A DNA stretch of 64,000 nt from NCBI GenBank assembly GCA_963793725.1, contig CAWCAY010000003.1, positions 778,496 to 842,495 on the forward strand, read 5' to 3'. Source of the stretch: an uncultured bacterium. GTDB lineage: Bacteria; JAUVQV01; CAWCAY01. Numbering within the stretch: the first letter of the stretch is position 1; the number at the start of each line of letters is the position of its first letter. A program made the translations under genes and the position numbers. The notes beneath the pieces are model-generated. The model searched no databases. It saw only the letters and a list, made by a program, of their open reading frames with translations, and was not told the DNA's origin. Positions 69-11,959 of this stretch are shown one piece after another.

Positions 69-1038
69 GTGAACCGATTCGACCGCCAGGTGCTGTCGGC
101 CGCCGGCGAACTGCTCGCCGGGCGGGACCTTTCCGTCCTCCAGGTGAACGTGGGCCTGCGATGCAACCAGGTTTGCCGGCATTGCCAGCACGAGTCGTCC
201 CCCGCCCGGCACGAGGCGATGCCGTGGGAGGTCATGGAGGGGGTGCTGGCCGCGGCCGGATCGGTCGGCCGCCCGCTGGTCGACATCACCGGCGGGGCTC
301 CGGAACTGCACCCGGAGCTGCCGAGGTTCGTGGCTGCCCTGGCGCGTCACGGCTTCCCGATCCAGGTGCGCACCAACCTGACCGTGCTGCTGGAGCCGGG
401 GATCGAGGTCCCTGCCGGCCTTCTTCCGCGATCACCGGGTGGGGCTGTTCGCCTCGATTCCCTGTTTCCTCGATGGCGCGGCCGAGACCCAGCGGGGGCC
501 CGGCGCCTTCTCCAGGTGCGTGGAGGTGCTCGGCCGGCTCAATTCCCTGGGCTACGGCGTCGACCCGGAACTTCCGCTGTCGCTGGTCTACAATCCCGGA
601 GGGCCCGAGATTCCCGCCGGCCAGGATCTGCTGGAGGAAGAGTGCCGCCGGGAGTTGGGTGATCGCCTCGGCATCCGCTTCACCCGCCTGCTGGTCAACG
701 TCAACGTGCCCGTCGGCCGCTTCCGGCGGGAATTGTCGGGCACCGGCGGCTTGGCGGATTACCAGGCTGCCCTGGAGCGGTCATTCAATCCGGGCACGCT
801 CGATGCCCTCCAGTGCCGCCACCAGATAAGCATCCGGTGGGACGGCGCGTTGTTCGACTGCGACTTCAACCTGGCCCTAGGGATGCCGGTCGACCACGGG
901 GCGTCCGCACGGCTGGAGAAGTTCGACCCGCACCGGCTGGCGTGTCGCCGGATCGTCACCGGTCCCCACTGCTTCGCCTGCACCGCCGGCGCGGGAGGCT
1001 CCTGAAGCGGTGTCCTCCTGCCCCCGTCGGGGGCGTAG
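69..1038 (+). CDS. arsS: Radical SAM/Cys-rich domain (seleno)protein, ArsS/TIGR04167-like; needs one frame correction near 409-411 and read-through of TGA 1003-1005
   Basis: ORF 69..662 has a GTG start and the cluster motif LQVNVGLRCNQVCRHCQHE (CxxxCxxC). ORF 439..1005 continues in the next frame with PAFFRDHRVGLFASIPCFLDG ... WDGALFDCDFNLALGMP ... GPHCFACTAGAGGS. Dropping one C from ccc 409-411 joins them (EPGIEVLPAFFRDH). The ORF stops at TGA 1003-1005, where Cys-type relatives carry a conserved Cys. Ten more sense codons follow to TAG 1036-1038. Confidence 0.7.
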
Positions 1039-1040
1039 AC
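1012..1040 (+). promoter_or_regulatory. Candidate SECIS-like stem-loop just 3' of the in-frame TGA
   Basis: The upper stem is a perfect 6-bp pairing of gccccc (1020-1025) with gggggc (1029-1034), with apical loop gtc (1026-1028). A lower stem pairs gtc 1012-1014 with gac 1038-1040. The loop sits about 21-23 nt after the U of UGA. Confidence 0.35.
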
Positions 1041-1065: not shown

Positions 1066-2541
1066 ATGAAACGGGCCGTGGTCATCGGCGCGGGCCTGGG
1101 GGGGCTGGCCGCGGCCATCCTCCTGGGCCGCCGGGGCTGGCGGGTGCTGGTGCTTGACCGGAACCGCCATCCCGGGGGAACGGCTTGCACCTATGCCCGG
1201 AAGGGCTACCACTTCCCGATGGGTCCGCTGGGATTCAGCAGCCCCGCCGAGGTCCATCGGCTGCTGGCCGACCTGACCGGCCGCCAGACGTGCGCCATCC
1301 CCGTTCGCTACCGAATCCGGGCCATGGGGCTCGACCTGCCACTGTCGCTGCCGCCGGAGGGTCTGACCGCCGCCCTGGCCGCGGTCTTCCCGGCCGAAGC
1401 AATCGGGGTGGCCAAATTCTTCCGCATGGTGGACGTCCCGGCCGAGGCCGTGCCGGTGACCGACGCCGCATCCTGGCTCGCCGGCCACATCGCCGACGAA
1501 CGGCTCCGGCGGGTGCTGGGGTCGATCGGAACCAGGCCGGCTTCGTTCTCGCTCCCCCTCCTGCTGGCCCAGTGGCGGCTGATGCTGCGCCAGGGAATCT
1601 GGTATCCGGCGGGGGGCTTCCGTGGCCTTGCCGGTCTGCTGGCGGCGGAAGTCGCCGCCCCGGGGCCCGGGACGGGCGAGGTGCGGCTGGGGGCCGGCGC
1701 GGTCGGGATCGTCGTCGACCGGGGCCGGGCGACGGGCGTGCGCCTGGATGACGGCGCCATTGTCGAGGCCGACCTGGTCGTCTCCAACGCCGACTTCCCG
1801 TCGACCTTCCTGGAATTGCTCCGGCCGGAAGACGTGCCGGCGGCGTTCCGGGAGGCGATCGTCGCCCGCCGCCTGACTGGGTCAGGTTTCCAGGTGGCCC
1901 TCGGGATCAGTGCCGATCGGGCCGACTTGTCGGCCTTTCGCGACGGGTCGCGGATCATCTTCCGGCGGCCCGGCCCGGTCGGGGATGATTCCGCGGAGGA
2001 GGGTGGGCCGGCTTCGGTGATCGATCCGGTGAGGCTGGCCGGGCAAGAGCTGGAGATCGCCCTCTGGAGCGCCGAGGATACCGACCTGGCGCCCACCGGC
2101 GGGGCGGTTCTGGTCGTCCGGACCGAAGCCGACTATCGATGGTTCCAGCCGTTTTGGGCCGGCCGGATGCGGAGGGGTCCCGGGTACACGGCCTTCAAGG
2201 AAGGGCTGGCCGAAGGGCTGATCGCCGCTGCGGCCACGCTGCTGCCCGGGCTGCGGGAGGCGGTCGACGTGGTCGACGTCGCCACGCCGCTCACCTTCCG
2301 GGACCGCGGCGGGAGGACGGCCGGAGCGGTAGCCGGATGGTCGTGGGACGCGGCCGATTTCTCCGCGACCGTCCCCGAGGACCTGACCGCCACGCCGCTG
2401 CCGAACCTGCTGATGGTCGGGCATCAGGCCTCCTCGGCCATCTTTCGCGGTGGGGTGCCGACCGCCCTGTCGAGCGCCTTTACGGCCGTGGATTCCGGGG
2501 CACGTACCGGCAACTTCAAACAGCAGGAACCGGAGGTGTGA
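1066..2541 (+). CDS. NAD(P)/FAD-dependent oxidoreductase, phytoene-desaturase (CrtI)-like family
   Basis: 491-aa ORF. The N-terminal dinucleotide-binding motif is MKRAVVIGAGLGGLAAAILLGRRGWRVLVLDRNRHPGG. The ATG lies 28 nt after the extended arsS stop. Confidence 0.8.
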   Translation: MKRAVVIGAGLGGLAAAILLGRRGWRVLVLDRNRHPGGTACTYARKGYHFPMGPLGFSSPAEVHRLLADLTGRQTCAIPVRYRIRAMGLDLPLSLPPEGLTAALAAVFPAEAIGVAKFFRMVDVPAEAVPVTDAASWLAGHIADERLRRVLGSIGTRPASFSLPLLLAQWRLMLRQGIWYPAGGFRGLAGLLAAEVAAPGPGTGEVRLGAGAVGIVVDRGRATGVRLDDGAIVEADLVVSNADFPSTFLELLRPEDVPAAFREAIVARRLTGSGFQVALGISADRADLSAFRDGSRIIFRRPGPVGDDSAEEGGPASVIDPVRLAGQELEIALWSAEDTDLAPTGGAVLVVRTEADYRWFQPFWAGRMRRGPGYTAFKEGLAEGLIAAAATLLPGLREAVDVVDVATPLTFRDRGGRTAGAVAGWSWDAADFSATVPEDLTATPLPNLLMVGHQASSAIFRGGVPTALSSAFTAVDSGARTGNFKQQEPEV

Positions 2542-2543
2542 CG

Positions 2544-3116
2544 ATGAAGGTGGTGGCATTCAACGGATCGGCCCGGCGGGACGGCAACACGGCCATCCTG
2601 CTGCGCCGCGTGCTGGCCGAATTGGAGCGGGAGGGAATCGGCACCGAGCTGGTGCAACTGGCGGGGGAGAAGGTCCACGGCTGCACCGCCTGCATGAAAT
2701 GCCGGCAGAGCCGCAACCGGCAGTGCACCGGCCTGCGGGACTTCGGCAACGAGTGCATCGGCAGGATGGACGCGGCTGACGGCATCCTGATCGGCTCGCC
2801 GGTCTATTTCGCGGACGTCACCGCCGAGACCAAGGCGCTGATCGACCGGACCGGGTACGTGGCCATGGCCAACGACGGCATGCTGACCCGCAAAGTGGGG
2901 GCGGCGGTCATCGCCGTCCGGCGCGGGGGGGCGGTGCACGCCTTCGACTCGATCAACCACCTCTTCCTGATCAGCCAGATGATCGTCCCCGGGGCCTCCT
3001 ACTGGAACATGGGCCTGGGGCGCGACAAGGGGGCGGTGGAGGAGGACGCCGAGGGGATGCAGACTATGGAGACGCTCGGGCGGAACATGGCCTGGTTGCT
3101 CAAGAAACTCGCCTAG
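2544..3116 (+). CDS. Iron-sulfur flavoprotein-like NADPH-dependent FMN reductase
   Basis: ATG 2544 follows the upstream TGA (2539-2541). The sequence MKVVAFNGSARRDGNT is a flavodoxin-like start. The compact Cys motif CTACMKCRQSRNRQC (CX2CX2CX7C) is typical of Isf-type proteins. Confidence 0.8.
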   Translation: MKVVAFNGSARRDGNTAILLRRVLAELEREGIGTELVQLAGEKVHGCTACMKCRQSRNRQCTGLRDFGNECIGRMDAADGILIGSPVYFADVTAETKALIDRTGYVAMANDGMLTRKVGAAVIAVRRGGAVHAFDSINHLFLISQMIVPGASYWNMGLGRDKGAVEEDAEGMQTMETLGRNMAWLLKKLA

Positions 3117-6908: not shown

Positions 6909-7603
6909 TGCCGGGCGGCCGGACGCTCCGGGTTGGCCGGCGGTTCCCCCTTGCGGCAGACCAGCAGCACGTGCGGGTAGGGGAGCCAATCATTCAGCAG
7001 GTGGACCGACACGTCGAAGCCGATTCGCCGCAGCATGATCTCGAAGTCCTGGTGGTGGAGGTAGTAGACCGGCTCGCGGCCGACCATCAGGATGTCCATG
7101 GCGTAGTTGAAGATGTACTTCCAGAGGGGGGCGGTGGTCACATCCTTGACCACCAGGACGCCCCCGGGCCGGAGTTTGCCGTGGCAGTCCTCGAGCAGGT
7201 GCCACTTCTTGGCCGGTGAGACGTGGTGGAGCAGGTCGAGGATGACGATGCCGTCGACCTCCCCGAGCGACATGCGGGTGGCGTCGCCGGCGGTGAAGCG
7301 GATGTTTTCGAGGCCCAGTTTCGCGGCGGCGGCGGTCGCCTCGTCGATGCGCCGCCGGTTCAGGTCGAACCCCTCGATGGCCCGCTCGGGGCGCTTCAGC
7401 TTGAAGAACATGCTGAACAGGCCGAAGCCGCAGCCGATGTCGACGATCCGCCCGGCCTTCGGCAGGTGCTCTTCGATCCGCGACAGGATGTCGATGTGGA
7501 TGATGATGAAGCGGATGAAGACGTACAGGCGGGGAACCCAGCCGCGATACGCGCGATTGATCCGCCTGACGATGGCCCGGTGATCCCTCGATTCGCCGCT
7601 CAT
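6905..7603 (-). CDS. Class I SAM-dependent methyltransferase
   Basis: 232-aa ORF. Motif I is IVDIGCGFGLFSMFF, and the DATRMSL and ILDLLHH motifs are present. It is translationally coupled to the downstream GT-C gene. Confidence 0.85.
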   Translation of the reverse strand: MSGESRDHRAIVRRINRAYRGWVPRLYVFIRFIIIHIDILSRIEEHLPKAGRIVDIGCGFGLFSMFFKLKRPERAIEGFDLNRRRIDEATAAAAKLGLENIRFTAGDATRMSLGEVDGIVILDLLHHVSPAKKWHLLEDCHGKLRPGGVLVVKDVTTAPLWKYIFNYAMDILMVGREPVYYLHHQDFEIMLRRIGFDVSVHLLNDWLPYPHVLLVCRKGEPPANPERPAARQ

Positions 7604-7620
7604 CTGGCGCGTCCTCCCGA

Positions 7621-8046
7621 TCAGCCCCGGGATGCCTCCCGCGGCAGGTCCTTCCCGCAGAAGCGGCAGACGGTGGCGGCGGGCTTGACCCTCTCGGCGC
7701 AGAAGGGGCAGGTCCTGGTCGCCCCCTCATCTCCCCCCTGGCCGGGGGCACGGAGGTGCTCGGTCTGGGCGGCCTCGATGAGCGCCTTGATCCGGAGGGC
7801 GTCGCGCTTGCGGTGTCCGTGGCTGGTGATCGCGTCGGTGCCGCCGGTGCTCTCGACCAGGATGTCGCTCCAGAGGATACCCGTCTGGATGCGGACCGAA
7901 GCCACCCGCTGGAGGTGGATGCTCACTTCATTCCGGCTGAACCAGCTCCGCTTGCGGCGGATGATGGCCGTGCCGGTGACCTCGATGACGGTCGGGAACA
8001 TCAGGTTGCCGCCGGTCCACCGGCTGGCCGCGAAGATCTCTCCCAT
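7621..8046 (-). CDS. Bacterial PH-domain-like protein with C-terminal zinc ribbon
   Basis: 141-aa ORF. A PH-like core reads VIEVTGTAIIRRKRSWFSRNEVSIHLQRVASVRIQTGILWSDILVESTGG. The C-terminal ribbon is CPFCAERVKPAATVCRFCG. Confidence 0.6.
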   Translation of the reverse strand: MGEIFAASRWTGGNLMFPTVIEVTGTAIIRRKRSWFSRNEVSIHLQRVASVRIQTGILWSDILVESTGGTDAITSHGHRKRDALRIKALIEAAQTEHLRAPGQGGDEGATRTCPFCAERVKPAATVCRFCGKDLPREASRG

Positions 8047-8067
8047 GATCGGTCGCCTCCCCGGCGC

Positions 8068-8457
8068 TCAGTCGATGCCGACGTCGCCGGGGTGGAGGCT
8101 CTCCACCAGTTGAGTCTGGCGGGCGCTGACGCTGATGAAGAGCCGGGCGATGGTGTCGTGCATGATGACCGTGCGCTTGTTTCCCTGGACCACGAAGCGC
8201 TCCTTGATCGCGCGCTTGAGGCCGGCGTCGCCGCACACCACGATCATGATGTCGATGTCGTCGGCCCGGTCCACCAGGGCCATCGGGTCGGTGGTGGAGT
8301 GAACGCCCTTCTCGGTGGCCAGCATTATTCCCGGCGCGCCCCGCTTGACGTCGGCGATGCCGACGACGGAGACGTACGGATACTTGAGCAGCTCGTTGAG
8401 CAGCATCGAACCGGTCCTTCCCGCGCCGATGATCGCCACGGTGATCTTCTCGGTCAT
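8068..8457 (-). CDS. Small Rossmann-fold NAD(P)-binding domain protein
   Basis: Taken from ORF 8068..8472, using the start MTEKITVAIIGAGRTGS, which carries a GxGxxG motif. It is the first gene of the minus-strand operon running from 8457 to 5354. Confidence 0.55.
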   Translation of the reverse strand: MTEKITVAIIGAGRTGSMLLNELLKYPYVSVVGIADVKRGAPGIMLATEKGVHSTTDPMALVDRADDIDIMIVVCGDAGLKRAIKERFVVQGNKRTVIMHDTIARLFISVSARQTQLVESLHPGDVGID

Positions 8458-8657
8458 GCCGTCTCCCCCCACGATTGAGAATGCCCCTCGATGAACGTCG
8501 GAATGATCCCTCGGCTGAACAAAGCGGCTTCACTTTACGCCGGCGGAGGGATTTCCGTCAAGTTCCCTCCGGAAGGGTGCCGGGCTCCCGGACTGCCGGC
8601 GCGGCGGCGGTTCCATGGTAGAATGCCCCCCACAAGAACGGAATCAGGAGGAAACCC

Positions 8658-9443
8658 GTGCTGCGATCGGCGACCAAGTGGCGGTTGGCAATCAGGGTAC
8701 TGCCCATTTGCCTGGGGGTGGTGCTGCTCAAGTTCGTCCTCCACCGGTTCGGGTGGGAGGCGATCAACCTGAACCCGGTCTTTCCGGGGCTCCTGGCGGC
8801 CACCGTCTTCCTGCTGGGCTTCCTGATCTCCGGGGTGCTGACCGACTACAAGGAGAGTGAGAAGCTGCCCGGCGAGATCGCCGCCAGCCTGGAGGCCATG
8901 GCCGGCGAGGCGGGCATCATCTGGCGGAACAAGAAGGCGCCCGAGGCGATGGCCTGCGTGGCGCACGTCGAGCGCCTGTCGGGCGCGGTCCTGGAATGGC
9001 TGCGCGGGAAGACGGCTTTCGATGACCTGATGAACCAGCTGACCGATCTCGACCGGCACCTGGCGGCCATCGAATCCCTCGCCCCGCCGCCGTTCATCGT
9101 CAGAATGAAGCAGGAGCAGTCGTCCCTGCGGCGGTTCATCATCCGGATAAACGTCATCCGGGAGACCTCGTTCATCGGCACCGGTTACGCCATCGCCGAG
9201 ATCGTCTCCGTCCTGCTGATCCTGGCCTTCACGCTGGCGGCCATCGAGCCCTTCGGAGAGTCCCTCTTCATCGTCGGGCTGATCACCTTCCTGCTGACCT
9301 ACATGCTGGCGCTGATCATGGACCTGGACAACCCCTTCGACTACCAGGCGGACGGGACTGCGGGGGGTGACGAGGTTTCGCTGGCCCCGCTGGAGGGCGT
9401 CCGGGCGCGCATTGGGCGCCTGATCGCGGCGCTGGCGGGGTGA
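8658..9443 (+). CDS. Membrane protein of unknown function (bestrophin/DUF4239-like topology)
   Basis: 261-aa ORF. GTG 8658 is preceded by the RBS aggagg. The ends are hydrophobic and the middle is soluble. The family call is tentative. Confidence 0.55.
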   Translation: MLRSATKWRLAIRVLPICLGVVLLKFVLHRFGWEAINLNPVFPGLLAATVFLLGFLISGVLTDYKESEKLPGEIAASLEAMAGEAGIIWRNKKAPEAMACVAHVERLSGAVLEWLRGKTAFDDLMNQLTDLDRHLAAIESLAPPPFIVRMKQEQSSLRRFIIRINVIRETSFIGTGYAIAEIVSVLLILAFTLAAIEPFGESLFIVGLITFLLTYMLALIMDLDNPFDYQADGTAGGDEVSLAPLEGVRARIGRLIAALAG

Positions 9444-9465
9444 GACGGGGCACCGTCCGCCGCAC

Positions 9466-9770
9466 ATGAACGAAGCGCTCATCCAGAGGCTTGCCCGGCT
9501 CGCCCGGAACACCCGCCTGCTCGGCCTCGTGGACCGGTTGCTCTTCGTGCGTGAACTTGCCCGCCACGGCGGGGCGAACCGGCTCTTCGCCCGACGCCAC
9601 CCCGGCTTCGCCGTGCCCCCCCGCGGCCTCGTTCGACGCCGTCTACGCCCTGTCGGTGTTCACCCACCTCGACGCCCGGGGATGGGAGGCGTGGATTCAC
9701 GAGTTGGCCCGCGTGACCCGCGAGGGGGGCTTTCTCCCCTTGACGGGCGTCATCCGCCTCTGCCATAGTG
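9466..9770 (+). pseudogene. Remnant of a class I SAM-dependent methyltransferase (internal deletion and frameshift)
   Basis: ORF 9466 gives MNEALIQRLARLARNTRLLGLVDRLLFVRELARH. A second frame (ORF 9491) gives FDAVYALSVFTHLDARGWEAWIHELARVTREGGFL, which corresponds to post-motif II/III. The GxGxG SAM-binding block between them is missing. Confidence 0.35.
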
Positions 9771-9938
9771 GGATCGATTCATGCAGGATTTCACGGCGGG
9801 GCACCTTCCCGGCCTCCCGTGCTCCGCCCGCCGACGCTCCCACCCGGGGGGCCGCCTCGAAGGAGGTGAGGCCTGACAGCCATGCCCGTGGACCGAATAA
9901 GGTTTGAGTCCTCATCGGGAAGCACAGGAGGAGACGTC

Positions 9939-10367
9939 ATGAGAAGGAATCATCTGGTCGCATTGTTGATCGGTGTCATGGGCTTGGTCGTCATGCTGTT
10001 GCCGGCGGGTTGCGGTGGTGGTGACGACGGCGCGGATCCGTTGAACATCATCGGGTCCTGGCAGATCACCGCCGTCGGCTATGAGGGGATCATCCCGGCC
10101 ATCGTGGTCACGATTACCGCTCACGCGAGTCCCACCAACGTCACCGCGACGGCCACCGGGGGCGGTGATTACGTGACCGGGGTCACCGTCACCACCGAGG
10201 GGGTGCCGGGCGTGGAGTCCCCGCGCGGGATCACCATCACCGTCAACTTCAGCGACGGCTCCTGGGGGAGCTTCGCCGGCACCGTGGGTGACGACAACGC
10301 GGGCATGAGCGGCAGGTACAGCAACAGCCAGGGCTCCTCTGACACGTGGTCGGCGCGGCGGATCTAG
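9939..10367 (+). CDS. Lipoprotein of unknown function
   Basis: Internal ATG 9939 of ORF 9882..10367 is preceded by aggagga. The signal peptide MRRNHLVALLIGVMGLVVMLLPAGC carries a lipobox. Confidence 0.65.
   Translation: MRRNHLVALLIGVMGLVVMLLPAGCGGGDDGADPLNIIGSWQITAVGYEGIIPAIVVTITAHASPTNVTATATGGGDYVTGVTVTTEGVPGVESPRGITITVNFSDGSWGSFAGTVGDDNAGMSGRYSNSQGSSDTWSARRI

Positions 10368-11959
<1,592 letters not shown>

Follow-up and report, generated by a model that had tools for sequence, protein, structure and literature searches.

A very probable selenocysteine codon at the C terminus of an ArsS-family radical SAM protein in an uncultured bacterium

We analyzed a 64,000-nucleotide stretch of DNA from an uncultured bacterium (here, the window) and found that positions 69 to 1038 of its forward strand very probably encode a radical SAM selenoprotein of the ArsS family (TIGR04167). 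The protein would be ~322 amino acids long if the gene is intact, the frameshift that splits the present copy being an assembly error. Comparative sequence data strongly suggest that the TGA at positions 1003 to 1005 is read as selenocysteine (Sec) by means of a hairpin downstream of it. The decoding of this TGA as Sec was the central claim of the original prediction, and it is supported by the alignment of the TGA with a Cys column, by a conserved tail and hairpin, by TGA-containing forms of the gene in distant genomes, and by the Sec genes of the same genome.

The assignment to the family was made on a mended reading of arsS, in which positions 69 to 410, 412 to 1002, and 1006 to 1035 were joined with an X at both breaks. 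The mended protein scored 321 bits against the NCBIfam model TIGR04167 (E value of 7e-96; curated cut-off, 300), and the match spans profile positions 5 to 303 of 303, crosses the TGA, and reaches 4 residues beyond it. The 5′ part of the gene (69 to 410, forward strand, frame 3) opens with a GTG start codon and carries the radical SAM core, matching both TIGR04167 and PF04055 (Radical_SAM; 34.3 bits versus a cut-off of 29.5). Its CxxxCxxC motif reads CNQVCRHC (residues 32 to 39), and the three cysteines C32, C36, and C39 are invariant in our alignment of homologues (alignment A1). The 3′ part (412 to 1002, forward strand, frame 1) completes the radical SAM domain and contains the Cys-rich domain DUF3641 (PF12345; E value of 3.1e-37, profile positions 1 to 133 of 134). 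In alignment A1, every conserved ArsS Cys position is present apart from the last, which is the TGA. A search of solved structures matched nothing beyond generic radical SAM cores (E value of ~1e-6), and no ArsS structure was found.

Is the gene intact in this genome? The open reading frame ending at 1005 starts only at 439, and the N-terminal third of the protein (69 to 410) lies in another frame. This frameshift, which splits arsS, was not mentioned in the original prediction. DNA alignment with two close relatives (loci L031 and L034) placed it at positions 408 to 411 of the forward strand, where the window has four bases (GTCC) and the relatives have one codon, so that one base is surplus. 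The surplus base is absent from L031, whose arsS (L031:3001-3969) is intact, from L034, and from one contig of a public sequencing run (X2), which is without one base at 408. Relatives occur in freshwater and sediment samples (runs X1 and X2). A frameshift programmed at 408 was rejected, as all relatives are in one frame there.

Alignment of a 6-kb stretch of L031 (92% identical) to the genome revealed that the surplus base does not stand alone. We counted 33 gap openings, nearly all of a single base, in the 3.3 kb between window positions -2913 and 409 (G000:C3:775580-778905; L028 ~7085-10409) and none in the 2.7 kb between window positions 410 and 3114, the arsS frameshift being the last event of the block. 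Such a sharp edge fits a local consensus artefact. Within this block, the asd and DUF4382 genes are broken, as are those for the 82-aa and the 391-aa (radical SAM) products; the radical SAM gene upstream of arsS, in four pieces here, is whole in L034. Elsewhere in this error-prone assembly, selA, selB, and arsM are likewise split, and rpoC (G000:C5:255642-259737) appears split near residue 566, with two in-frame TGA codons in one piece. The adjoining rpoB is intact over 4.1 kb, and indel errors are therefore unevenly spread over the assembly. Upstream and downstream of the arsS frameshift alike, dN/dS versus the relatives is 0.18 to 0.27. These data suggest that the surplus base at 408 to 411 is most likely an error of the assembly consensus, in which case the real gene would be intact and encode ~322 amino acids.

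The best-surviving alternative is a selenoprotein gene by descent that is now dead: the additional base would be real, translation would run into an out-of-frame stop at 660 to 662, leaving the UGA and its hairpin unused. The surplus base is, after all, present in the assembly as given, and the intact 4.1 kb of rpoB shows that some genes of the assembly are not riddled with errors. No read set from the strain itself speaks for or against the base: in the best public runs, no more than 18% of the sampled words were present, position 408 is spanned only by contigs of relatives, and the contig of the nearest strain stops at 401. Against this, the base is missing from all three relatives and from the X2 contig, and it closes a dense block of indels that also breaks neighbouring genes. 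Moreover, the 594 nucleotides that follow it are free of stops, and dN/dS over this part of the gene (412 to 1002) is 0.18 to 0.22 versus the relatives. We regard a dead gene as quite unlikely.

At its 3′ end, the arsS frame (...HCFACTAGAGGS; C terminus, ...CFACTAGAGGS) meets the TGA at 1003 to 1005 on the forward strand, where Sec would complete a GxxU motif (G-G-S-U). The coordinates given in the original prediction held: the TGA is followed by ten open codons (1006 to 1035, forward strand) that encode the C-terminal tail SGVLLPPSGA, and these end at a TAG (1036 to 1038, forward strand), the proposed true stop. The final codons of the tail also encode the hairpin, a SECIS-type candidate at 1019 to 1035 of the forward strand, which was supported by individual folds, a consensus fold, and one compensatory pair. 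Folding confirmed the perfect 6-bp stem described earlier, six G-C pairs from G1020 to C1034 closed by a GUC loop (1026 to 1028); a U1019-G1035 wobble pair can extend it, giving a stem of 6 to 7 bp, and the hairpin folded alone has an energy of -12.7 kcal/mol. Of the extra 3-bp lower stem that had also been put forward, the pairing of GUC (1012 to 1014) with GAC (1038 to 1040) does appear in the minimum-energy fold, but it is absent in the 78%-identical relative. The stem begins 13 to 14 nucleotides past the UGA, and the loop begins 20 nucleotides past it. Criteria of the bSECISearch type place the apical loop ~16 to 37 nucleotides from the UGA, with a G among the first two loop positions, and the hairpin at 1019 to 1035, with its GUC loop 20 nucleotides past the UGA, lies within them.

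How much of this could arise by chance? In the window, the frame stays open for at least 10 codons behind 74% of the TGA triplets; in DNA this rich in GC, an open extension alone is thus uninformative. Hairpins comparable to ours (perfect, at least 6 bp, with a G among the first two positions of the loop, at SECIS-like spacing) occur 3′ of 24 of the 1,588 TGA triplets in the window (1.5%). The fold z-score of positions 1000 to 1050 is only -2.16, and in a control, two GC-rich homologues of the Cys type (L039 and L040) folded equally well at the same place, so folding energy alone does not tell a Sec form from a Cys form. An Rfam scan of positions 900 to 1150 (E values up to 10) gave no match to a SECIS model; the lone match was a chance hit to the DUF1874 RNA on the opposite strand (13.3 bits versus a gathering score of 42). 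We also considered the hairpin as an intrinsic terminator and rejected this, since positions 800 to 1300 contain neither a terminator-like site nor a T run. The sequence features at the TGA are genuine yet only mildly unusual, and the weight of the argument rests on comparative evidence.

The original prediction had asked whether the TGA aligns with the conserved Cys, and it does. In alignment A1, its column is the Cys of ...CTAGxGSSCGGAL, which is occupied by Cys in 118 of the 120 best homologues; the other two end exactly there. These two exceptions (P0001, 92% identity; P0002, 78% identity) are annotated as proteins of 311 amino acids that end one residue before the column. Their DNA was obtained from independent assemblies, namely, three NCBI metagenome assemblies and one Logan contig (L031 to L034). 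The TGA is kept in L031 to L034, and three independent relatives share the TGA, the ten-codon tail, a stop at the equal position (TAA in L031, TAG in L034), and the hairpin; beyond the stop codon, their sequence diverges. The 311-residue ends of P0001 and P0002 are thus not natural termini, as evidenced by a TGA followed by a conserved tail, stop, and hairpin in their DNA. This answers the objection raised with the original prediction, that close homologues might naturally end at this position. Compared with L034, the tail, whose frame, length, and stop are conserved there and in L031, carries three synonymous changes and one nonsynonymous change that preserves a base pair; tail dN/dS is 0 versus L031 and 0.12 versus L034, values that come from very few sites. 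In the consensus fold, the basal G1020-C1034 pair is replaced in L034 by U-A, with changes on both sides. This is the one compensatory pair seen among three close sequences.

The same column carries an in-frame TGA in more distant genomes. Among 61 genomes searched with the TIGR04167 family model, it was found in three of the same class (G001, G002, and G004) and in one that is unrelated (G011), with motifs GFTU and GSTU, while G003, G005, and others have Cys at this position. Each of the four distant TGA forms is followed by a hairpin that starts 11 to 16 nucleotides past the UGA. The primary sequences of these hairpins are unlike that of the window, and their recurrence at this place is consistent with a SECIS function.

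The genome itself (11 contigs, 3.14 Mb, estimated completeness of 77%) was searched for the Sec machinery. The original prediction had named selA, selB, selC, and selD as the genes to look for; a tRNA-Sec gene and a Sec-containing selD were found, together with selA and selB as collinear frame pieces. The tRNA-Sec gene scored 70.8 bits against Rfam RF01852 and was called tRNA-SeC with anticodon tca by ARAGORN. It lies ~450 nucleotides downstream of selD, on the opposite strand. The selD gene (G000:C3:275215-276661; locus L030, 716 to 2162) scored 364.6 bits versus a cut-off of 125. This gene appears to encode a selenoprotein in its own right, its canonical active-site position being occupied by an in-frame TGA (...AAGUAAK...). 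In a profile search, selA and selB were located next to each other on the reverse strand of another contig (G000:C7:190457-193572; locus L029), both collinear with their profiles. The selA gene is in five frame pieces covering profile positions 52 to 453, with a summed score of ~384 bits (cut-off, 267.9); selB is in four, including the SelB-specific C-terminal part (522 to 578), with a sum of ~256 bits (cut-off, 242.25). No single piece of either gene is above its cut-off. We assume that the frame pieces are due to assembly quality and that both genes are intact.

The alternative that TGA 1003 is an ordinary stop is very unlikely in light of these data. The product would be an ArsS of 311 to 312 amino acids without its last Cys, and the hairpin would be incidental or would stabilize the mRNA in the 60-nucleotide spacer ahead of the following gene. 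Gene callers do stop P0001 and P0002 at the TGA, open extensions behind TGA triplets are the rule in the window, and Cys-type genes also have GC-rich hairpins behind them. However, the residue lost would be one that 118 of 120 homologues possess; the frame, length, and stop of the tail are kept, with changes that are mostly synonymous; a TGA occupies exactly the same column in at least four distant genomes; the Sec machinery has been retained; and no T run of the terminator type follows the hairpin.

With the TGA taken as a Sec codon, a decoding scheme can be proposed on the model of the standard bacterial system. Once a ribosome reaches the UGA at 1003 to 1005, the mRNA hairpin at 1019 to 1035 would tether SelB-GTP carrying Sec-tRNA(Sec), and SelB would deliver selenocysteine in place of termination. 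Ten further codons would then be translated up to the UAG at 1036 to 1038, yielding a protein that ends in ...CFACTAGAGGS-U-SGVLLPPSGA. In the CxxCTAGxGSSC tail of DUF3641, the Sec would stand in place of the final conserved Cys. There, it would probably serve as a thiol/selenol ligand or as a redox partner, either for the arsenic substrate or for an auxiliary centre.

The SECIS element of E. coli fdhF, a stem-loop just 3′ of the UGA that is bound by SelB (PMC1802603), offers a comparison for the predicted element. Like it, the hairpin of the window lies within the coding region, has an apical loop starting with GU, and is spaced 13 to 14 nucleotides (stem) and 20 nucleotides (loop) from the UGA. 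In contrast to the fdhF element, its stem is short (6 to 7 bp), its loop has 3 nucleotides, and it has no bulged U; it also shares no sequence similarity with that element and matches no Rfam family.

The family itself is already known to contain selenoproteins. The statement in the original prediction that TIGR04167 has Sec-containing members agrees both with the NCBIfam name of the model (rSAM_SeCys), "arsenosugar biosynthesis radical SAM (seleno)protein ArsS," and with the lists of two reviews, in which TIGR04167 stands as a predicted prokaryotic selenoprotein family under the name "Radical SAM domain protein," with motif GxxU and with AAR34688.1 from Geobacter sulfurreducens as the listed example (PMC9312934, PMC13188914). 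A literature search by name for ArsS as a radical SAM protein with selenocysteine found none, the family being listed under its accession. The window protein resembles the family in its above-cut-off score over the full profile, its CxxxCxxC motif, and its DUF3641 domain, as well as in having a TGA where CTAGxGxx(C/U) has its last Cys, with a short tail behind it and a hairpin just downstream. It differs in that its tail has 10 residues (SGVLLPPSGA) rather than the usual ~5 (GGALV), that its motif is GGSU rather than GSSC/U (which still fits GxxU), that its neighbours are lineage-specific (radical SAM/SPASM-like, CrtI-like, and FMN-reductase-like) and do not include arsM, and that one surplus base splits the copy of the gene found in this assembly. 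The longer tail and the lineage-specific neighbourhood without arsM are the only particularities of this arsS; in other respects, it is a routine further member of a selenoprotein family that has already been catalogued.

Behind arsS, two tightly packed genes encode a CrtI/phytoene-desaturase-like FAD oxidoreductase of 491 amino acids (window positions 1066 to 2541), which stays under every equivalog cut-off, and an FMN-reductase-like protein (window positions 2544 to 3116). Only the close relatives L031 to L034 share the flanking genes; the Sec-type arsS loci of the same class do not. The region upstream was read in the relative L031 (L031:1468-2875, corresponding to window positions of about -1440 to -60). 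There, an 82-amino-acid open reading frame without a family match overlaps the start of a 391-amino-acid radical SAM gene by 17 nucleotides. The best matches of the latter, all scoring far under their cut-offs, are SPASM-type maturases of peptides or cofactors. Both genes are conserved in L034, with 83% identity for the shorter product and 76% for the longer one. This small open reading frame and the radical SAM gene, directly upstream of arsS, may form a precursor-maturase pair.

For the Cys-type enzyme, published biochemical work describes addition of the 5′-deoxyadenosyl radical to dimethylarsenite to give 5′-deoxy-5′-dimethylarsinoyl-adenosine (PMC13598754; bioRxiv 10.64898/2026.04.29.721666). 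The window protein belongs to the same family by profile. It differs from this characterized ArsS in having Sec, as predicted, for the last Cys. A further difference concerns arsM, whose homologue in this genome (G000:C7:45856-46570) is on another contig than arsS and is split into two frame pieces of 138.9 and 137.8 bits (cut-off, 263). The Sec-type arsS lies in a cassette with the 82-amino-acid open reading frame, the radical SAM/SPASM-like gene, and the CrtI-like and FMN-reductase-like genes. With a cassette that is limited to close relatives and contains no arsM, a different substrate is conceivable. The Sec-type ArsS of this lineage would then not be an arsenosugar enzyme and could adenosylate another metalloid or a lipid-type substrate in an undescribed pathway, a scenario that we consider unlikely.

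The window gene does not change what is known of Sec decoding or of the ArsS family. Its main value lies in correcting an annotation, as the gene and its close relatives in public assemblies have been called at 311 amino acids, without a residue that the family conserves. It also adds one more case of the exchange between Sec and Cys at the C terminus of ArsS. For the organism, the presence of tRNA-Sec, a Sec-containing SelD, SelA, and SelB indicates that this uncultured lineage uses selenocysteine.
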